A stretch of DNA of 48,504 bases from Mycobacteriales bacterium. Lineage in GTDB: Bacteria > Actinomycetota > Actinomycetes > Mycobacteriales > DASULA01. Where the stretch lies: contig DASULA010000489.1 of the NCBI GenBank assembly GCA_036278435.1, positions 1 through 48,504 of the forward strand. Direction: 5' to 3'. Both the position numbers and the translations under genes were made by a program. The notes under the pieces are model-generated. The model was not told where the DNA came from. It saw nothing but the letters and a program-made list of their open reading frames with translations, and did not search any database. Positions 1 to 18,625 of the stretch are shown one piece after another (the first letter of the stretch is position 1; each line of letters starts with the position of its first letter).

Positions 1-94
1 CCCGCCGGTGGCGCCGGCCCACCGGCCCGTGCCCCACCCACCGGATGCTCACCGCCGAACTGACCACCCTCGGCCCACCCACGTGGAAACCCGC

Positions 95-289
95 ATGACC
101 CGGCCCAACCCGTACCCCCGTCCGGCGCCCACGAGCCCCCCGGCGGAGGCACTTGCCGCGTTCGGGCAATGGGTGCTGTCCCTGCACCAGCTCGCCGAAG
201 ACCCGCACTGGTGCACCTGCGGCCAGAACGTGGTCCTGTGCCCCTACCGCACCGGCGCCACCCGCTACCTCGGCCCACCCAGCAGATAA
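95..289 (+). CDS. small hypothetical protein (64 aa, Cys-containing: ...HWCTCGQNVVLCPY...)
   Basis: ATG at 95 lies inside ORF 8..289. TAA stop at 287-289 is followed 5 nt later by a perfect 14-bp hairpin. No family recognised. Confidence 0.3.
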   Translation: MTRPNPYPRPAPTSPPAEALAAFGQWVLSLHQLAEDPHWCTCGQNVVLCPYRTGATRYLGPPSR

Positions 290-293
290 GACC

Positions 294-326
294 GGCCGGC
301 CCGGTACGGAAGGTACCGGGCCGGCC
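294..326 (+). terminator. stem-loop GGCCGGCCCGGTAC-GGAAG-GTACCGGGCCGGCC (14-bp perfect stem, no U-tract)
   Basis: Inverted repeat read directly, immediately downstream of the stop at 287-289. Confidence 0.45.
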
Positions 327-434
327 CCAAACTCGCCTCCTCACAGACCCCGGATGGGGTGCCCGGCCACCTGGGCTCTCCGGCCGACGCGAGGGCGGAC
401 CGGACACCCTGGATCTCGACCCGTGGAGGACGAC

Positions 435-746
435 GTGCACAACACATCCGCCGACCCCATCGCCGACACGCTGGACCTACTGCCCGCGGGCACCACGGAC
501 CGGCACACCGTGGAGTCGGCCCATCAGGTCCGGCCGTTCGGACTCACCCTCGCCGTACCGACGCCCGACGCCGTGGATCTGACGCCGATCAGCTACGACC
601 CGCAACGGCAGATCGCCACGGTCGGTGACACCCCGGTAATCGACACGCCCATGCTGCCGGACATGACCGTCACCCAGTACCAGACCACCGTGGATCACCA
701 GCGGATGACCGACAAGCGGTTCGACCGCCCTACTCCGAAGAACTGA
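435..746 (+). CDS. putative graspetide (ATP-grasp target RiPP) precursor peptide, about 103 aa
   Basis: C-terminal part of ORF 153..746. GGAGGA at 425-430 precedes GTG 435 (alternative GTG 423). Leader-like ...VRPFGLTLAVP...ISYDPQRQIATV... and a Thr/Asp-rich C-terminus (MTVTQYQTTVDHQRMTDKRFD). Stop lies 4 nt before the ATP-grasp-like ORF. Resembles the TIGR04186-type precursors from memory. Confidence 0.55.
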   Translation: MHNTSADPIADTLDLLPAGTTDRHTVESAHQVRPFGLTLAVPTPDAVDLTPISYDPQRQIATVGDTPVIDTPMLPDMTVTQYQTTVDHQRMTDKRFDRPTPKN

Positions 747-750
747 AATC

Positions 751-2085
751 GTGTCCGGGGACACCGTGCTCGTGCTGACCGCCCCGGACGACCCAACCGC
801 TGACCTGGTAGTCCGAGAACTGGGACGGCGCGACACTACGGTGTTCCGCGCGGACCTCGCCTGGTTCCCCACTCGACTCACCATGACGGCGCGGGCAGGC
901 GGACCGTGGACCGGTGTCCTCCGCCTGCCCGACCGGGCCGTTCGGCTCCGCGACATCATCTCCGTCTACTACCGACGCCCCAACTCCTACGCGCTGTCCG
1001 CAGTCCTGTCCGAAGGCGACCGAGCGTGGGCGGACACCGAGGCACGCCACGGGCTGGGCGGTGTTCTCACCGCCCTGGACTGTCTGTGGTTGCCCGACCC
1101 GGTCACAGCCGCCCGAGCCGAGTTGAAACCTGTGCAGCTCGCCGCCGCTGCACAGGTAGGACTCCACATACCCGATACCCTCATCACCAACGATCCGACC
1201 GAGGCGGCGGACTTCGTCGCCTCCCAGCCCGGCGGCGCGGTGTACAAACCGCTGTTCGGACGGCCCACCACCCACGACGGGCAGCCCGAGTCGCTGTACA
1301 CCACCACGGTCACGACCGATGCGATCACCCCGGCCGTCGCCTACACCGCCCACATGTTCCAAGCCAAGGTGCCCAAGGCGTACGTGCTGGTCGGCCAGGC
1401 CCGTGATCGGCTCGCCGCGATCGGCTACCGCCCGACGCTGGTTGCAGCCGACGGCCTGGCCGGATGGCCGGACGGCGCGCCCTACGACCGGATCCTCGGC
1501 ACCTGTTCCACCCGCCGGGTCCCAGCCGCGTGGCTGGCCCAGATCCGCGCCGGCGGGATGATCGTCGCCAACGTAGGGCAGGGTGTTGTGCCTCTGCGGG
1601 TCGATGCCGGCGGCTCGGCGTCCGGCTGGTTCCTGCCCGGCCCGGCGTCGTTCATCGAAGCCCGGCCCGCGGACGCACCCGACGGCATGCCCTTCGACGC
1701 GGCGGTCGATCTCGTCTACGCGCAGGGGGACAGCACCCGGTCTGCCGATCCGTTGGTGGGGATTGGCGATGAGGCTTTCTGGTTCGTCGTTCACGTCGTC
1801 ATGCCGGGCCACGTCTGGTTCGAACTACACGAGGACGACAACACGACATACTGCCTGGTCGACCCGATGACCCGATCCTGGTACCGGGCGACCCGGGCTG
1901 CTGATCGGATGACGGTCACCCAGGCCGGCTCCCGGCGGGTCTGGGACGACCTGGCCGCGATCCACGTCCGATGGGAGGCGGCCAACCACCCCTCCCATGA
2001 CCGACTCGGCCTGACCGTCACCCCCGCCGGCAGGCACACCCTGTGGGTTGACGAACCCGGCCGCCGCGCGTGGACGCTGGTCTGA
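751..2085 (+). pseudogene. chimeric ORF: N-terminal about 210 aa of an ATP-grasp RiPP maturase fused in frame to the C-terminal about 235 aa of a PIMT-like O-methyltransferase (probable internal deletion)
   Basis: The N-terminus MSGDTVLVLTAPDDPTADLVV...YKPL...HMFQAKVPKAY looks like a SAV_5884-type ATP-grasp. It then switches abruptly at about nt 1383 to ...LVGQARDRLAAIGYRPTLVAADGLAGWPDGAPYDRILGTC...IRAGGMIV (PIMT motifs II/III). No glycine-rich SAM motif I and no ATP-grasp C-terminal subdomain are present. Confidence 0.5.
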
Positions 2086-2095
2086 TGCGGGTGCC

Positions 2096-2124
2096 GGCAC
2101 CGGCCCGACGAGCCTTCCGGTGCC
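2096..2124. terminator. hairpin GGCACCGG-N13-CCGGTGCC between convergent genes
   Basis: 8-bp inverted repeat between the stop at 2085 (+) and the holA stop at 2149 (-). Confidence 0.3.
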
Positions 2125-2148
2125 CGAAGTCCCGGGGTGCTGGTGGGT

Positions 2149-3117
2149 TCAGTGCAGGGCGCGGGCGGCCAGGATACGGCGGATCGCCAGTTCCAGGGCG
2201 TAGGACGGGTCCACCGCGACGCCCTTCACGTCGGCGTTCACCTCGGCGGCCACTCGCATCGCCGCGCCCAGGCCAGCCTCGCTCCAGCCGCGCGCCTGGC
2301 TCTGCGCCCGCTTCACCTTCCACGGCGGCATGCCCAGGCCGCTGGCCAGGTCGTAGGGGTTCCCCCGGCCGGCCGAACTCACCCGGGCGATCGACCTGAT
2401 CCCGTCGGCCAGGGCGTCGGCGATCAGTACGTGGGCAACCCCCACCGACAGGGCCCAGCGCAACGCCTCCAGCGCTCCCGGCCCGTCGCCGACCACGGCC
2501 CGGTCGGCCACCGCGAAGCCGGTCACCTCGGCCCGCCCCCGGTGGTATCGGGCCACCGCGTCGGCATCCACCCGCCCGCCGGTGTCGGACACGAGCTGAC
2601 CACAGGTGGCCGAAAGCTCCCGCAGGTCGTTGCCGACCGCGTCCAGCAGGGCCGCGGCGGCATCCGGGGTGATCGAGCCGCCAGCACGGGCCACCTCGCC
2701 CCGGATGAAGTCGATCCGGGCCTCCATCCGGGTCACCTTCCGACACTCCACGGTCCGGGCCCCGGCCCGGCCGAGCGCGTCCAGCAGGGCCTTGCCCCGG
2801 GCCCCGCCGGAATGCACCACCACCAGGTGCACGTCCTCGGCAGGGTCGGCGAGGTAGGAGCCCAGCGCCGCGGCCAGGTCCTTGCCGACGTCCTGCGCGT
2901 CCCGCAGGACGACCACCCGGGCGCCACCGAACAGAGTGGGGCTGAGCAGGTCGTACAGGTCGCCGGGAGTGACCGACGAGGCGGTCAACTCCCGCACATC
3001 GCACTGCGGGTCGCCGGCACGCCCGGCGGCGACGACCTCGGCCACGGCGCGGGACGCGAGGAACTCCTCCTCACCCACCACGACGGTCAATGGTCCGGGC
3101 ACGCTGCGCGCTGGCAT
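2149..3117 (-). CDS. holA: DNA polymerase III delta subunit
   Basis: ORF 2149..3207. Typical HolA layout (…VVVGEEEFL…LFGGARVVVLRDAQD…, C-terminal helical domain). Start chosen at MPARSVPGPLTVVVGEEE. An alternative GTG at 3207 overlaps the comEC stop. Confidence 0.85.
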   Translation of the reverse strand: MPARSVPGPLTVVVGEEEFLASRAVAEVVAAGRAGDPQCDVRELTASSVTPGDLYDLLSPTLFGGARVVVLRDAQDVGKDLAAALGSYLADPAEDVHLVVVHSGGARGKALLDALGRAGARTVECRKVTRMEARIDFIRGEVARAGGSITPDAAAALLDAVGNDLRELSATCGQLVSDTGGRVDADAVARYHRGRAEVTGFAVADRAVVGDGPGALEALRWALSVGVAHVLIADALADGIRSIARVSSAGRGNPYDLASGLGMPPWKVKRAQSQARGWSEAGLGAAMRVAAEVNADVKGVAVDPSYALELAIRRILAARALH

Positions 3118-3203
3118 CCGCCAATGGTGGCACGCCCGCCGGTCCGATCGGCCGGCGGTCGCGACCGCACCGGACCGACCGGTGGTGGTCCGGCGCGAGC
3201 GGA

Positions 3204-5579
3204 TCACCGCCGGACCGCCGGACGCCCAACCACCCGGTGCGACCGGGTCACCATCACCAGGTTTCCGTGCCGGTCGCAGGCGGCGATGTCACCGTCGCGG
3301 TCGGTGCGGTACACCCGCATGCCCAGCCGGGCCAGCTCGGCCAACAGCACCGGCGAGGGGTGCCCGTAGTCGTTGCCGGCGCCGACGGAGATCACCCCGA
3401 CCCTGGCCCGGGTCGCTGCCAGGAAGCGCGGATCGCTGTGTGCCGATCCGTGGTGAGGCACCTTCAGCAACTCGGCGTGCAGGTCCGTTTCCCGGCCCAG
3501 GATCTCCTGCTGGGCCTCGACCTCGACGTCCCCGGTGAGCAGCAGGGTGTGCCCGCGGTCGGTCACCCGCAGCACCAGCGAGGAGTTGTTCGGGTCCGAC
3601 CTGGTCCGGTGGAACGCGTGCGCCGGTGCCAGCACCTCCAGCCCGACCCCGCCCAGTCGCCAGGTCTCCCCCATGTGGACCGGCAGCAGCGGGATCCGGT
3701 GCGTCGCCGCCGCCCGCCGGACGTTGTCCCACTCCCAGGTCGGCTGGTGCAGTGGACCGGTCTCGATGGCGGCCACCTGGCGTCCGCGCAACACGCCGAC
3801 GACTCCGCCGGCGTGGTCGGCGTGCAGGTGGGTGAGCAACAGCAGTGGCACCCGGCGCACCCCGAGCCGGCGCAGGCAGTGGTCGACCAGCGCCGGGTCC
3901 GGGCCGGTGTCAACGACCACCGCGCTGCCAGGTCCGGCGTTGAGCACCAGCGCGTCGCCCTGACCCACGTCGCAGGCCACCAGCATCCAGCCCGCCGGCG
4001 GCCAGGTCAGCAGTACCGACCGGGCCGGGACGGTCACCAGCAGTGCGGCCACCGCGGCGGCGAGCACGCCCCGCCGCACGGCCCGGAACCGCACGCAGGC
4101 CAACCCGGCCACGGTCATCGGCACCAGTAACCAGAACCCGGTCCAACCGGACGGCCACGGCAGGGCCGCCAACCGAACCCCGCTGGCCTGCCGGCCGACC
4201 GCCGCCAGCCAGGCCGTGGGCAGGCCCGCCAGCCAGGCAACCGCCCGGGCCGCGGCGGGCGAGGCCGGGCCGAGCACGGTGGCCAGCACACCCAGCACGG
4301 TCGCTACCGGGACCGCGGGCGCGGCCAGCAGGTTGGCCGGTATCCCGACCAGGCTCACCCGCCCGGCCAGCGCGGCGATGATCGGCGCGGTGGTCAGATA
4401 GGCCGCGGCCGGCACCGCAACGGCGTCGGCCAACCAGGGCGGCACGCCGGCCCGGCGCAGCCCGGCACCCCAGCGCGGCGCCAGCACCAACAGCGCCCCG
4501 GTGGCCCCCACCGACAGGGCGAACCCAGCCGACCTGGCCAGGTCAGGAGACAGCAGCACGAGCACCAGTGCCGTGCCCGCCAGGGCCGGCACGCCCTGTC
4601 GGGTCCGGCCGGTGGCCAGTGCCAGCAACGCGATCGCGCCCATCATCGCCGCCCGCAACACGCTCGGCGACGGACGCACCAGCACCACGAACCCGGCGAG
4701 CGCCAGTCCGGACACCGCGGCGGTGAACCGCGGATCGGCGCGAAACAGCCGGCACAGCAGCAGGACCGCGCCCACCACGATCGTGACGTTGGCCCCGCTC
4801 ACCGCCAGCAGGTGGGCGAGCCCGGCAACCCGGAAGTCGGCGGCGACCGTGGGGTCGAGCCCAGAGGTGTCTCCGAGCACCAGACCGGGCAGCAGGCCGC
4901 GTTCGGCGGTTGGCAGTACGGTGGCGGCGTCGCGCAGACCGTGGCGCAGCCGCCCGGCCGCCCGCTGGACCACCGACGGCGGGCCCACCTGGCTCGGCGG
5001 TCCGCGGACCGAGAGCACGGCCACGGTCAGGTCGCCGGACCGGGCCGGAACCACCCGACCCGTCACGCGCAAGTGTTGGCTGGGTAGCAGGCCACTCCAA
5101 CCACCGGCCGGCGCGAGCACCAGGACGTCGGCGCGCAGCCGCCAGCCCCGCCCACCCGAGCGGACCCGCAGGGCACGGGCCGGCACCGCCACCCTGGGCA
5201 CTCCGGTCACGCCGTGCGGGCGCAGTGGCCGCGGATCCGCCCGCACCACCAGCCACACCGTGGCCGCCGCGCGGACGCTGGCCAGGCCGCGCAGCGGCGA
5301 GGAGCCTCGGGCGTGCACCCGGACTCCGACCAGCACGGCCGCGATCGCGGCGCACCCCAGCGCCAGCCCGGCCGCCCGGCGGGTCGGCCGGTCGGACCGG
5401 ACCAGTGCGCCGGCCACGGCGGCGCAACCGCAGCCGACCAGGATCGAGCCGGTCGGCGACCAACCCAGGCCCAACCAGGTGACCAACCAGGCCGCGACCG
5501 CCGCCGGCAGCAGCCGTAGATCGAGCGGTGGCCCGCCCACCTGCCCGGCCCGGGGCGGCTGGCCCGGGGTGGCGGTCAC
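3204..5579 (-). CDS. comEC: ComEC/Rec2 DNA internalisation channel with C-terminal metallo-beta-lactamase domain
   Basis: Polytopic membrane region followed by ...DVGQGDALVL...LLLTHLHADHAGG... Start placed at GTG 5579, which forms a GTGA overlap with the comEA stop. The longer ORF to 6272 overlaps comEA. Confidence 0.85.
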   Translation of the reverse strand: MTATPGQPPRAGQVGGPPLDLRLLPAAVAAWLVTWLGLGWSPTGSILVGCGCAAVAGALVRSDRPTRRAAGLALGCAAIAAVLVGVRVHARGSSPLRGLASVRAAATVWLVVRADPRPLRPHGVTGVPRVAVPARALRVRSGGRGWRLRADVLVLAPAGGWSGLLPSQHLRVTGRVVPARSGDLTVAVLSVRGPPSQVGPPSVVQRAAGRLRHGLRDAATVLPTAERGLLPGLVLGDTSGLDPTVAADFRVAGLAHLLAVSGANVTIVVGAVLLLCRLFRADPRFTAAVSGLALAGFVVLVRPSPSVLRAAMMGAIALLALATGRTRQGVPALAGTALVLVLLSPDLARSAGFALSVGATGALLVLAPRWGAGLRRAGVPPWLADAVAVPAAAYLTTAPIIAALAGRVSLVGIPANLLAAPAVPVATVLGVLATVLGPASPAAARAVAWLAGLPTAWLAAVGRQASGVRLAALPWPSGWTGFWLLVPMTVAGLACVRFRAVRRGVLAAAVAALLVTVPARSVLLTWPPAGWMLVACDVGQGDALVLNAGPGSAVVVDTGPDPALVDHCLRRLGVRRVPLLLLTHLHADHAGGVVGVLRGRQVAAIETGPLHQPTWEWDNVRRAAATHRIPLLPVHMGETWRLGGVGLEVLAPAHAFHRTRSDPNNSSLVLRVTDRGHTLLLTGDVEVEAQQEILGRETDLHAELLKVPHHGSAHSDPRFLAATRARVGVISVGAGNDYGHPSPVLLAELARLGMRVYRTDRDGDIAACDRHGNLVMVTRSHRVVGRPAVRR

Positions 5580-6466
5580 ACCGTCACCCGGTCCCGGATC
5601 TGGGCGAACTTCGCCGGACCGATGCCCGACACCTGCCGGAGTTGGTCTACCGACCGGAACGGTCCGTGTTCGGTCCGCCAGTCCACGATCCGCTGCGCCG
5701 TCACCGGGCCGATGCCCGGTAGGGCGATCAGTTCGGCCGCCGTGGCCGCGTTGAGGTTGACCGGACCGCCGGACACCCCGCCGGACACGCCACCCGACAC
5801 GCCGCCGCCGGCGCCGGCGCCCTGGGCGGCAGAGCCGGCGGCCGGCATCGGGATGCCCACCACCACCTGCTGGCCGTCGGCCAGCGGGCGGGCCAGGTTG
5901 AGCAGGCCGAGGTCGGCCCCGGGCAGCAACCCGCCGGCGGCCCGGATCGCGTCGACGACCCGGGCGCCGCGGGGAAGGGTCACGATCCCCGGATGGCGCA
6001 CCCGGCCGGCCACCGCCACGACCATCGTGCTCACCGACTCCGGTGCCGACGGTCGACCGGCGGCCGGAGCCGGGGCTCGGCCCGCCGCACTGGCCGAGGT
6101 CGGCCCGGCACTCGCCGACCCCGGCAGGGGCACCGGGTCTGCCACGGGTCGGGCCCGCCAGGTGAGCACCCCGACCAGGCTGGCCGCGGCCAGCGCGACC
6201 GCGAGCAGGGCGAGCACGCCCCGCCGCCCCGGATCGACCCGCCAGGTCCGCCCAGTCCGCCAGGTCCGCCATGCCCCGGTTCCGGCCGGCTCAGCCGGGC
6301 CGGCCGACTCGGGCGTCGCGGGTTCGGGGGCCGGTGCGGTCGGCGGGTCACCGGATGGTGGGTCACCGGATGGCGGTGGGCCGGGCCGGAACAACGACTC
6401 CAGCCTGGTCCGCACATACGTTGGGTCGTCGTCTACCGGGCGGGTCCGGCGGGTGGAGGCGAGCAT
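5576..6466 (-). CDS. comEA: ComEA (SLBB domain plus tandem helix-hairpin-helix DNA-binding domain)
   Basis: C-terminus ...VNLNAATAAELIALPGIGPVTAQRIVDWRTEHGPFRSVDQLRQVSGIGPAKFAQI... Start at ATG 6466 (MLASTRR...). Confidence 0.85.
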   Translation of the reverse strand: MLASTRRTRPVDDDPTYVRTRLESLFRPGPPPSGDPPSGDPPTAPAPEPATPESAGPAEPAGTGAWRTWRTGRTWRVDPGRRGVLALLAVALAAASLVGVLTWRARPVADPVPLPGSASAGPTSASAAGRAPAPAAGRPSAPESVSTMVVAVAGRVRHPGIVTLPRGARVVDAIRAAGGLLPGADLGLLNLARPLADGQQVVVGIPMPAAGSAAQGAGAGGGVSGGVSGGVSGGPVNLNAATAAELIALPGIGPVTAQRIVDWRTEHGPFRSVDQLRQVSGIGPAKFAQIRDRVTV

Positions 6467-6595
6467 GGGTTCGACGGTCGCAGCGGCGGCCGGCCACCGA
6501 AAGGCGGCAACGTGGAACTGTGGACAACTGTCGGACCTGTGGATACCGCGCCGTGGTGACGGCGCGCCACCGGTAACAATGAGAAGATAGGGCGC

Positions 6596-8245
6596 GTGCC
6601 CACCGTGCAGATTCCGGAGCGCATCCGGGAAACCGCCCATTCCCTCGACACACCGGCTCCTCCGCCGCTCTCGGAGCGGGTGTCGCTGTCACTGGCCACC
6701 CCGGGAGTGCGGGTGGTGGTCGCGGTCACCGGATTCGGGCTGTTGCTGAGCGGGGTCTTCCTCTTCCTGCCGCTGGCCGGCACCGACCTGTCCGCGCAGG
6801 TGGCGCGGGCTCATTTCACCAAGGTCTACGGCAGCCAGCCGATCGACTTCCGTTGGTACAGCGGAGCGCAACAATACGGTTACAGTCTGTTCTCAACATG
6901 GATTATGGCGGTCGTGGGAACCCGGGGAGTCGGGGCACTTTCCGCTGTTGTGTCGTCATTCGCATTTGCCCTTCTTCTGGTACGTACCCGAGTTCGCCGT
7001 CCGCTGCTCGGCGGTCTGATAGGCGCCTTCTGCTTCGTGTCGAACCTCGTCAGCGGGCGGATGACGTTCGCACTGGGCGTCATGTTCGGCCTGCTCGGGC
7101 TGGCCTGTCTGACCCTCACCGGGCACCGGCGGACCCAACTGGTCGGCACCGGTCTGGGCGCGTTCCTGGCATCGGCGGCCAGCCCGGTGGCCGGGTTGTT
7201 CTCCGGACTCGCCGGGACCGCCCTGGTGCTGACCGGTCGTCGCCGGGAGGGCATCGTCACCGGCGTGTCCGCGGCCGTACCGATCGGCGTGCTCAGCACG
7301 GTGTTCGGCGAGGGCGGCTGGATGAACTTCAACCAGCTCGACATGATCAAGGCGGTCGGGCTGAGCCTAGCCGCCACCCTGCTGGTGCCGTCGAAGTACC
7401 GGGTGGTGCGTGCCGGCGCGGTGCTGTCCGCGGCCGGCATCCTGGTGTCCTACCTGGTGCACACCCCGGTCGGGTCGAACTCCACCAGGCTGGCGATCAT
7501 GTTCACGCTGCCACTCGTCGCCGCGACCATGCAGGTCAACTCGGTCCGGCACGGCACCGCGCTGCTCGTGGCGCTCACCGCCTGGCAGCCCCCGCTGATC
7601 GTCGGCGACCTGGTCGACGCCGGCGGCCCGGCCGCGCACCGGCCGTACTACGCCCCGCTGCTCACCGAACTGGAACGCCGGGAACCGCTCGGCCGGGTGG
7701 AGGTGCCGCCCACCCGGGACTACTGGGAATCGGTGTACGTCGCCGACACAGTGCCGCTGGCCCGGGGCTGGATGCGGCAGGTCGACATCGAGCGCAATCC
7801 GCTGTTCTTCGACGGCTCGCTGAGTGCGGTGTCCTACCAGCGGTGGCTCTACGACAACGGCGTCGAGTACGTCGCACTGCCCGACACCACGCTGTCCTGG
7901 GTGGGCCAGGGCGAGGCCGACCTGATCCGCACCGGCCTGCCCTACCTACGCCCGGTCTGGAGCAGCCAGCACTGGATCCTCTACCAGGTACTCGGCGCTC
8001 GCACCGCGGTGGAGGCACCGGGCCGGCTGGTCGACTCGACCGCGACCGGGATCACGCTCCAGGTGAGCCAACCCGGCACGGTGCTGGTGCGGGTGCGCTT
8101 CACCCACTGGCTGAGCGTCGAGGGACCGGCGGCGTGTATCGAACCGGCCGGGCGGTGGAGCCGCCTGGTCGCCAGCCAACCGGGCATCTACCACATCGGC
8201 AGCCGGCTGCAACCCACCCAACCCTCGCGCTGCGCGGGCGGTTAG
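6596..8245 (+). CDS. polytopic integral membrane protein with C-terminal extracytoplasmic domain (GT-C-like?), function unknown
   Basis: ORF 6596..8245. Many hydrophobic segments in the first ~330 aa, then a soluble C-terminal ~200 aa. No family recognised with confidence. Confidence 0.6.
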   Translation: MPTVQIPERIRETAHSLDTPAPPPLSERVSLSLATPGVRVVVAVTGFGLLLSGVFLFLPLAGTDLSAQVARAHFTKVYGSQPIDFRWYSGAQQYGYSLFSTWIMAVVGTRGVGALSAVVSSFAFALLLVRTRVRRPLLGGLIGAFCFVSNLVSGRMTFALGVMFGLLGLACLTLTGHRRTQLVGTGLGAFLASAASPVAGLFSGLAGTALVLTGRRREGIVTGVSAAVPIGVLSTVFGEGGWMNFNQLDMIKAVGLSLAATLLVPSKYRVVRAGAVLSAAGILVSYLVHTPVGSNSTRLAIMFTLPLVAATMQVNSVRHGTALLVALTAWQPPLIVGDLVDAGGPAAHRPYYAPLLTELERREPLGRVEVPPTRDYWESVYVADTVPLARGWMRQVDIERNPLFFDGSLSAVSYQRWLYDNGVEYVALPDTTLSWVGQGEADLIRTGLPYLRPVWSSQHWILYQVLGARTAVEAPGRLVDSTATGITLQVSQPGTVLVRVRFTHWLSVEGPAACIEPAGRWSRLVASQPGIYHIGSRLQPTQPSRCAGG

Positions 8246-17205: not shown

Positions 17206-17380
17206 GCGCTGGGTGTTCAACCACTTGACTTCCTCCCACCGGCTAAAGGCGGGGGATTCCGCCCCTCGCGGGGGGATCTTCCTGCTTCGCCGCCGACTGC
17301 CCTCGCGGCTCGTGCCGTTTGGGTCTTACGTCTGCTCCACAGGCGAGGACCGCCAGCCCGGCGGCTTTGATCGTGATCGC
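17206..17380 (-). ncRNA. predicted TnpB omega RNA (reRNA) scaffold plus about 20-nt guide derived from the flanking DinB sequence
   Basis: Position only. The tnpB stop lies about 15-18 nt from the right end, and the terminal region carries GC-rich hairpins (e.g. CCCC-TCGC-GGGG at 17262-17273). No covariance model could be run. Confidence 0.3.
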
Positions 17381-18538
17381 GGCGTTGTGATCCCGGTCGA
17401 GGACCGCGCCGCACCCGGGACACGTCCACTCCCGGGCGGCCAGCGGCAGGGAGTCCACCACGACCCAGCAGTCCGAACAGGTCTTCGACGACGGGAACCA
17501 GCGGTCCACGACCACCAGATTCCGCCCGTACCAGTCGGCCTTGTATTCCAGCATCGTGCGGAGCTGTCGCCACGCGGCGTCGGAGATCGCCCGGGCAAGG
17601 GAGTGGTTGCGGACCATGTTGGTCACGGTCAGGTCCTCGATCACGACCGTTTGGTTTTCGCGGACGAGTCGAGTCGTGAGCTTGTGCAAATGGTCCCGGC
17701 GGCGGTCGGCGATCCTGGCGTGCACCCGGGCAACCTTCACCCGGGCCTTCGCCCGGTTCGCCGAGCCCTTGGCTTTGCCAGACAGCCGGCGTTGAGCGAG
17801 CACGAGCCGTTCCCGGTCCCGGCGTTCGTGCCGGGGGTTGGCGATCTTCTCCCCCGTGGACAAGGTGATCAGCGAGGTGATCCCGGCGTCCACACCCACC
17901 ACCGAATCGGTCGGCGGACCGTCATGCACGGTGTCGTCGCACAGCAGGGACACGAACCACCGGCCCGCACTGTCCCGGGACGCGGTCGCTGTCGACGGCT
18001 GGGCGCCGTCGGGCAGCGGCCGGGACCAGATGATGTCCAACGGCTGCGACATCTTCGCCAGAGTGAGCCGGCCATCCCGGAAAGTGAATCCCGAGCGGGT
18101 GTACTCCGCGGACTGGCCGGACCGCTTCCGGGACTTGAACCGCGGGTACCGGGCGCGCTTGGCAAAGAAGTTGGAGAACGCCGTCTGAAGGTGCCGCAAC
18201 GCCTGCTGCAACGGAACCGAGGACACCTCGGAGAGGAACGCCAACTCCTCGGTCTTCTTCCACCCGGTCAACGCCGCCGAGGACTCCACGTAGGACACCC
18301 GGCGGTGTTCGCCGTACCAGGCGGCGGTGCGTTCGGCGAGGGCCTTGTTGTAGACGAGCCGGACGCACCCGAACGTGCGGGACAGCTCCGCAGCCTGGGA
18401 ATCGGTGGGGTAGAAGCGATACTTGAACGCCCGCTTCACTACCCGACCCACGCTCCACATTCTACCGGATCTACTGTGAGAGGGGGAAGCGGCGTTTTCC
18501 TCACCCGTGTGAACGCGGGCGTATCCACGCCGCGAATC
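17226..18538 (-). mobile_element. IS200/IS605-family, tnpB-only (IS1341-like) element, 1313 bp; junctions ambiguous by 3 nt (TGA on the + strand)
   Basis: Single TnpB ORF with no tnpA. No target-site duplication beyond the 3-nt ambiguity. GC-rich imperfect palindromes at both ends. Precise interruption of the DinB ORF. Confidence 0.8.
17243..18460 (-). CDS. tnpB: TnpB RNA-guided endonuclease (OrfB_IS605 plus Zn ribbon)
   Basis: ...KRAFKYRFYPT... The RuvC triad is recognisable (GVDAGI, VIEDL, DRDHNAA), with CSDC...CPGC. Start uncertain (ATG 18460, GTG 18451 or 18442). A TAGAAT -10-like hexamer at 18459-18464 would favour a leaderless GTG start. Confidence 0.85.
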   Translation of the reverse strand: MWSVGRVVKRAFKYRFYPTDSQAAELSRTFGCVRLVYNKALAERTAAWYGEHRRVSYVESSAALTGWKKTEELAFLSEVSSVPLQQALRHLQTAFSNFFAKRARYPRFKSRKRSGQSAEYTRSGFTFRDGRLTLAKMSQPLDIIWSRPLPDGAQPSTATASRDSAGRWFVSLLCDDTVHDGPPTDSVVGVDAGITSLITLSTGEKIANPRHERRDRERLVLAQRRLSGKAKGSANRAKARVKVARVHARIADRRRDHLHKLTTRLVRENQTVVIEDLTVTNMVRNHSLARAISDAAWRQLRTMLEYKADWYGRNLVVVDRWFPSSKTCSDCWVVVDSLPLAAREWTCPGCGAVLDRDHNAAITIKAAGLAVLACGADVRPKRHEPRGQSAAKQEDPPARGGIPRL

Positions 18539-18625
18539 TGATGAGCGAGGAATACGCCCGGCACCTCGGCCACGCCGAGCTGCTCCGCGAACGCCTCGAC
18601 GGCACCACCGGCTCCTGACCACACC

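Follow-up and report, generated by a model that had tools for sequence, protein, structure and literature searches.

The stretch of DNA analyzed here (hereafter, the window) comprises the 48,504 nucleotides (nt) of contig DASULA010000489.1, from assembly GCA_036278435.1 of an uncultured actinomycete labelled 'Mycobacteriales bacterium'. [quoted passage not shown] In graspimiditides (group 13 graspetides), Thr-Asp omega-esters made by the ATP-grasp enzyme shape the peptide into a stem-loop (bioRxiv 10.1101/2021.05.19.444834; Choi et al.; PMC13001092), after which a homologue of protein isoaspartyl methyltransferase (PIMT) methylates an Asp of the loop, and this Asp cyclises to an aspartimide (PMC13001092). 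The first-pass annotation of the locus had assigned it to the TIGR04186-04188 trio of this aspartimide-forming type, and the assignment holds, with the genes in the order precursor, ATP-grasp enzyme, methyltransferase (A-B-M). The genes are tightly coupled, the precursor stop codon occupying 744-746 and the next ORF starting at 751.

Table 1. Features of the graspetide-type locus and its immediate flanks, in window coordinates.
Feature	Position	Strand	Content or basis
Small ORF, 93 aa	8..289	+	No family match; in the block common to the window and L001
Hairpin, 14-bp, G+C-rich, terminator-like	294..326		Terminator scan; separates the upstream ORF from the precursor gene
Shine-Dalgarno-like GGAGGA	425..430	+	4 nt 5' of the precursor GTG start; read from the sequence
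Precursor gene, intact, 103 aa	435..746	+	Translation; TIGR04186 match; RPFG leader motif at residues 33-36 (nt 531-542)
Predicted core	672..725	+	Thr80, Thr84 putative ester donors; Asp87-His88 putative aspartimide site; Asp93, Asp97 putative ester acceptors
Chimeric 444-aa ORF	751..2085	+	ATP-grasp residues 1-211, one hybrid Val codon, methyltransferase residues 147-378
ATP-grasp remnant	751..1384	+	Pre-ATP-grasp N-domain and part of the central domain; C-terminal ATP/Mg site absent
Deletion junction TACG|TGCTGG	1384..1385	+	blastn and base-by-base comparison to L001
Methyltransferase remnant	1385..2085	+	End of the Rossmann fold and RiPP-specific C-terminal domain; motif I for S-adenosylmethionine (SAM) absent
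Altered WxxxGxP substrate-recognition motif	1972..1992	+	WEAANHP in the window, WEAAGRP in L001
3' flank common to the window and L001	2086..2129	+	Homologous up to 2129, 20 bp short of the holA stop codon
holA, convergent to the hybrid ORF	2149..3207	-	

The composite nature of the 444-aa ORF is evident from profile hidden Markov model (HMM) searches. With NCBIfam, TIGR04187 (ATP-grasp ribosomal peptide maturase, SAV_5884 type) matches residues 5-211 through profile positions 1-208 of 312 (E=1.2e-72), and TIGR04188 (methyltransferase of the ATP-grasp peptide maturase system) matches residues 213-429 through positions 143-362 of 363 (E=1.8e-54). E-values of this order lie well outside what chance would give. 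The scores, 244.8 and 185.5 bits, respectively, lie far under the full-length cut-offs of 350 and 380. Pfam agrees, placing an MvdD pre-ATP-grasp domain at residues 5-114 and a PCMT domain at 212-277, the latter covering only profile positions 109-175 of 210. The earlier description of a maturase start that continues as the C-terminal 60% of the methyltransferase is borne out by these coordinates, as is the switch after ...HMFQAKVPKAY, Tyr211 being encoded by nt 1381-1383 and the exact junction falling at 1384|1385. The hybrid Val codon takes its G from ATP-grasp Glu212 and its TG from methyltransferase Leu146.

Protein searches returned two intact relatives, an ATP-grasp enzyme of 317 aa (P0003, 89% identity) and a methyltransferase of 378 aa (P0002, 84% identity), encoded together on a Logan contig of 4.6 kb, locus L001. 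Locus L002 holds another intact trio, which is more distant. The L001 ATP-grasp enzyme scores 397 bits over TIGR04187 profile positions 1-312, above the 350-bit cut-off, and its methyltransferase 350 bits over TIGR04188 positions 1-362, a little under the 380-bit cut-off. By blastn, window 1-1384 corresponds to L001 1452-2872 and window 1385-2129 to L001 3625-4370, L001 2873-3624 (752 bp) being absent from the window; against L002, 759 bp are absent at the same place. The endpoints are exact relative to L001, because neither side of the junction needs a gap in the coding alignment (the ATP-grasp part differs from L001 2239-2872 at 66 of 634 nt, and the methyltransferase part from L001 3625-4325 at 105 of 701 nt). 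The two intact clusters thus map directly the deletion of about 0.8 kb that had been proposed in the first-pass annotation. What does not stand is its description as in-frame, 752 not being divisible by three. In L001, B and M overlap by 4 nt in different frames and, since 752 equals 2 modulo 3, the loss restores a single reading frame. In a scan of metagenome contigs for close relatives, all enzyme-spanning matches were at or below 46% identity, and a few short methyltransferase-only fragments (43-82 aa) reached 52-58%.

The parental sequences at the breakpoints (left TACG|AGGTGC, right CCCGC|TGCTGG) have no microhomology in common, and no direct repeat was found at or near them at the 752-bp spacing. 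A repeat-mediated deletion was therefore rejected for want of a direct repeat of fitting spacing, and the breakpoint sequences point to illegitimate recombination or end-joining as the probable mechanism.

As the window was assembled from soil metagenome sequence, and an L001-like allele is present in the same run, the junction might be an artefact of assembly or of a chimeric library, the real genome having two intact genes. The source run (X1) holds 99% of the sampled words of the window, and a 1134-bp contig of this run from Logan, an independent k=31 assembly, spans window 1200-2333 with 0 mismatches. Its depth (7.4) equals that of the adjacent contigs (6.2 and 7.7), and at 1384 there is neither branching of this contig nor any other contig with a loose end. 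Because no long repeat is common to both breakpoints, the de Bruijn graph cannot have invented the join. Moreover, both flanks belong to one strain, each being about 85% identical to L001 and colinear with it. The deletion exists in the sequenced DNA, and an artefact, already largely refuted, is exceedingly improbable.

The Logan graph also contains a bubble at window 1041-1229 (189 bp), where the window sequence is the major allele (depth 11.9). The minor allele (depth 2.5) differs from the window at 16 positions and carries the L001 base at 16 of 16, from which it follows that an L001-like strain co-occurs with the deletion strain in the soil sample.

The deleted segment holds the motifs on which both enzymes would depend. 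On the ATP-grasp side, residues 212-317 are gone, a segment that aligns with the matching part of the PruB structure 9BOU and includes ALDF (273) and EINPNGQW (288), which are the acidic and ExN positions conserved in the ATP-grasp C-domain, positions that bind Mg-ATP in the ATP-grasp superfamily. On the methyltransferase side, residues 1-145 are gone, including SSSQP (93), GTGTG (119), and VDID (141), which align with the substrate and SAM motifs of the Thermotoga PIMT 1DL5; GxGxG is marked as the SAM site in a review of the field (PMC13001092). The ATP-grasp C-terminal subdomain and the glycine-rich SAM motif, both reported missing in the first-pass annotation, thus lie within the 752 bp. 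The chimera was also modelled with AlphaFold2 (AF2) from a crude mixed alignment, the model being used for its per-residue confidence pattern only. The predicted local distance difference test (pLDDT) score is high at residues 1-205 and 310-444, and below 50 at residues 210-215 and 225-252. Foldseek against the PDB matched the model only to RiPP ATP-grasp ligases (CdnC, AMdnB, MdnC, and PruB), most alignments spanning about 207-220 columns of targets of about 300 residues, and no PIMT structure was matched at E<=1e-3. Neither catalytic fold is complete. A product devoid of both the ATP/Mg-binding C-domain and the SAM-binding GxGxG should be able to carry out neither reaction.

The first-pass annotation had offered, as an alternative to decay, a naturally minimised fusion enzyme. 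Among 131 matches in 5.8 billion clusters, the window protein is the only two-domain one, and an exhaustive HMMER scan of 1.84 billion representatives (6076 matches) yielded two other two-domain proteins among the best 150. One, P0230 (694 aa; L164 881-2965, Logan SRR28521183), has ATP-grasp residues 1-218 in one frame and 221-298 in the next; a +1 frameshift near ATP-grasp codon 219 lets the ORF read into a complete methyltransferase, and could be a sequencing error or the mark of a pseudogene. The other, P0235 (WP_277305372.1, 557 aa, Spongiactinospora sp. TRM90649; L163 3001-4674), arose by a separate, independent internal deletion that likewise fused an ATP-grasp N-terminal remnant (residues 6-152) to the methyltransferase, which is complete (TIGR04188 profile 1-362, 381 bits), whereas that of the window is truncated. 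Both are singleton clusters, and their breakpoints differ from that of the window. The same fused architecture was thus not found in several diverged genomes among the 131 and 6076 matches, the 444-aa chimera being its only instance. With no second protein of this architecture, and with both catalytic sites in the deleted 752 bp, the minimised fusion enzyme is not supported, and the locus does not represent a natural bifunctional ATP-grasp/methyltransferase family. Gene overlap, together with the scarcity of stop codons in high-G+C DNA, makes long chimeric ORFs a natural by-product of decay.

The Spongiactinospora chimera is preceded by two small ORFs, and its public annotation mentions a methyltransferase only.

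The precursor gene, by contrast with the enzymes, is intact. Its translation matches the 103-aa peptide quoted in the first-pass annotation, with the leader ...RPFGLTLAVP...YDPQRQIATV... and the core TVTQYQTTVDHQRMTDKRFD. It is 86% identical to the L001 precursor. Its resemblance to graspetide precursors, also claimed earlier, is upheld by RPFG and by the core pattern. The weaker point is TIGR04186, whose 25-bit cut-off it does not reach (21.5 bits, E=1.9e-4); the more distant L002 homologue exceeds it with 33.3 bits. RPFG, the conserved leader motif of ThfA homologues (bioRxiv 10.1101/2021.05.19.444834), is invariant across the window, L001, and L002 precursors. These three, down to 47% identity overall, also keep Thr80, Tyr82, Thr84, Thr85, Val86, Asp87, His88, Gln89, Asp93, Asp97, and a C-terminal RPxPxN, so that the pattern T80-x3-T84-T-V-D87-H88-Q-x3-D93-x3-D97 is invariant. 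Graspimiditide cores are defined by a Thr/Ser-rich N-stem, a loop with a conserved Asp-Xaa dyad, and an Asp/Glu-rich C-stem (Choi et al.). From spacing and conservation, esters Thr80-Asp97 and Thr84-Asp93 are predicted, with an aspartimide at Asp87-His88. The pattern T-T-x-D-H-Q-x3-D-x3-D also occurs in the precursor of a Micromonospora cluster (L166), and its T-T-x-D-H-Q part only in a metagenome precursor fragment (L165). A search for precursor homologues returned only the window's own and the L001 precursors, with no paralogous precursor; the subfamily is rare.

A close characterized parallel is fuscimiditide (ThfA/ThfB/ThfM, Thermobifida fusca), which like the window has a precursor, a single ATP-grasp enzyme, and a PIMT-type methyltransferase, as well as the RPFG leader motif. 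Its esters are T3-D22 and T7-D18, and its aspartimide is at D10 (bioRxiv 10.1101/2021.05.19.444834). When the window core is numbered with Thr80 as position 3, it reads T3, T7, D10, D16, and D20, which is the same spacing of Thr(i), Thr(i+4), and Asp(i+7), followed by two Asp four apart. The loop is, however, two residues shorter (acceptors at +13/+17, instead of +15/+19), the residue following the Asp is His instead of Gly, and the gene order is A-B-M, against B-A-M for fuscimiditide. The enzymes, too, differ, being truncated and fused in the window, where no product is expected. Other graspimiditides (amycolimiditide, albusimiditide, and SsfA) belong to the same HMM families and have the A-B-M order, an actinomycete host, a Thr-rich N-stem, an Asp-Xaa dyad loop, an Asp-rich C-stem, and a methyltransferase C-terminal WxxxGxP domain in common with the window, although the window host is an uncultured actinomycete, not Streptomyces, and its cluster is probably inactivated. 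Some graspimiditide clusters have been predicted to use a His follower, but none of the four characterized peptides has one (Choi et al.; PMC13001092). Imiditides and type I pamtides, which consist of a precursor and a methyltransferase only, have a PIMT-type methyltransferase with the same C-terminal domain as that of the window, and an Asp-His site has been reported for some of them (PMC13001092). Their methyltransferase is complete and needs no ATP-grasp enzyme, whereas the window's is devoid of the SAM site.

The pathway could still work if the precursor were matured in trans by another graspetide ATP-grasp enzyme encoded elsewhere in the genome, alone or together with a methyltransferase. 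The visible genome being limited to 48.5 kb leaves room for this. Nevertheless, tblastn found no second ATP-grasp or PIMT-like gene in the window (best other match E=0.25), the precursor has no paralogue among the homologues returned, and in characterized systems, methylation needs an esterified, folded substrate (PMC13001092). Maturation in trans is thus considered highly improbable. The claim that the deletion killed both enzymes and orphaned the precursor stands as regards the motif loss and the intact precursor, while the orphaning is seen within the 48.5 kb only.

The age of the deletion was approached by a relative-rate test, with L002 as the outgroup and the window compared with L001. 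In the ATP-grasp part, 6 amino-acid changes are specific to the window and 9 to L001; in the methyltransferase part, the counts are 13 and 8, and in the precursor, 3 and 3. The ratio of nonsynonymous to synonymous substitution rates (dN/dS) between the window and L001 is 0.23, 0.21, and 0.34 for these three parts, respectively. In addition, 35 columns of the retained methyltransferase part are at least 85% conserved among 115 homologues, and the window departs uniquely from them once (Gly412 to Asn), as against twice for L001. Neither test gives a significant excess of changes as a signal of decay in the window lineage. As the remnants carry no excess of amino-acid changes, the deletion looks recent, an evolutionarily recent event being the simplest reading of these counts.

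The same constraint could be taken to mean that the chimera retains a non-catalytic function as a precursor-binding protein, acting in sequestration, stabilization, or regulation. The ORF is open over its full length and still begins 4 nt after the precursor stop codon, the dN/dS of the enzyme parts is low (0.21-0.23), and AF2 gives two confidently folded blocks, residues 1-205 and 310-444. Furthermore, the leader-contacting residues 182-195 of MdnC fall within the retained region (PMC7823629), and the methyltransferase C-terminal domain is proposed to recognize the substrate (PMC13001092). Nevertheless, the chimera is a singleton among the 1.84 billion representatives, the measured dN/dS mostly reflects evolution before the deletion, and the Rossmann-fold remnant is predicted to be disordered. 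The sole family-invariant position uniquely changed, G412N, sits in the WxxxGxP motif described for the C-terminal methyltransferase domain (PMC13001092); this Gly is 93% conserved, and Asn is found there in 0 of the 115 homologues. Such a function is therefore judged highly improbable. A bolder proposal, in which the chimera survives as a non-catalytic precursor binder and recurrent internal deletions, such as the Spongiactinospora one that spared the whole methyltransferase, provide a route from graspimiditide to methyltransferase-only (imiditide-like) systems, is a long shot.

Taken together, the locus is very probably a decayed graspimiditide cluster, in which a 752-bp deletion welded the two enzyme genes into a catalytically dead hybrid while leaving the precursor intact. 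In the intact cluster, the ATP-grasp enzyme would have linked two Thr side chains by esters to two Asp side chains, creating a bicycle of stem-loop form, and the methyltransferase would then have methylated the loop Asp87, which would have cyclised to an aspartimide. A single deletion took away one third of the ATP-grasp gene at its 3' end and 40% of the methyltransferase gene at its 5' end. Its length is such that what is left of the methyltransferase is read in the ATP-grasp frame, and the precursor would have been left with no cognate enzymes. This is ordinary gene-cluster decay in a known RiPP family, not a new enzyme. Several points weigh against this reading. The loss of activity is deduced from missing motifs. 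The nearest intact relative has about 85% DNA identity, so that the ancestral breakpoints could have carried 1-2 nt of microhomology. The junction evidence consists of assembled contigs, and a minor intact allele in the same strain is possible. Finally, an ORF that is still open, with a dN/dS showing no decay, fits a recent deletion but equally a retained non-catalytic function.

Upstream of the precursor gene, the stretch GTGGAGGACGACGTG is identical in L001, and a 34-nt insertion/deletion relative to L001 further upstream of it indicates that that region is non-coding. The stem-loop at 294-326 is also present in L001, with changes, and a promoter scan found nothing. The 93-aa ORF is 80% identical to L001 1459-1737 (tblastn), and has no Pfam or NCBIfam match. 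Its last ~100 nt, encoding ...HWCTCGQNVVLCPYRTGATRYLGPP, show about 3 differences from L001, far fewer than the surrounding DNA.

The rest of the window is core chromosome, with holA, comEC, comEA, degV, leuS, nadD, a MoxR-like ATPase and VWA pair, TnpB, proB, obg, rne, a radical SAM gene pair, rodA, pbp2, mreB, an ABC transporter ATPase, and valS. The G+C content is about 71% overall, and 0.704 for positions 1-2129 against 0.712 for the rest (45th percentile); as this is not distinctive, a compositional island was rejected. The closest HolA (79% identical) is encoded in a metagenome-assembled genome also labelled 'Mycobacteriales bacterium', where holA is followed directly by rpsT, with no graspetide cluster, and the precursor/ATP-grasp/methyltransferase trio is absent from all 80 holA neighbourhoods of related genomes. 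Downstream of the cluster, L001 and L002 have genes other than holA (regions compared: window 2086-2149; L001 4326-4571; L003 7659-8436). Since the flanks differ among strains, the cluster occupies different chromosomal places, which suggests an inserted or mobile block, the left end of which would lie beyond the contig start. Rfam and tRNA scans found nothing, there were no phage matches, and plasmid matches were only to distant tgmB and methyltransferase genes.

Elsewhere in the window, an IS200/IS605-family TnpB RNA-guided endonuclease gene (17243-18622, minus strand; 374 bits to NF038281) separates the MoxR-like ATPase gene from the VWA gene, the region consisting otherwise of housekeeping genes. 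In the ComEC ORF (3204-6272, minus strand), about 450 aa rich in Arg, Gly, and Pro precede the ComEC match as an N-terminal extension, and this ORF overlaps the ComEA ORF (5576-6640, minus strand) by about 700 nt; the true comEC start is probably further downstream. An ORF of 549 aa at 6596-8245 (plus strand) has coding-like codon usage (G+C at third codon positions 0.87) and no NCBIfam match.

For genome mining, the locus illustrates that such chimeric ORFs pass simple keyword or Pfam filters, and may be miscounted as working clusters or mistaken for fusion enzymes, although HMM coordinates compared with an intact relative settle their status quickly. As to RiPP chemistry, a small precursor subfamily with a compact, two-ester, fuscimiditide-like predicted core and an Asp-His site is delineated by the intact relatives, namely L001, L002, and Micromonospora clusters. 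In the soil sample itself, the deleted form dominates over the L001-like allele, which hints at ongoing natural loss of the cluster.

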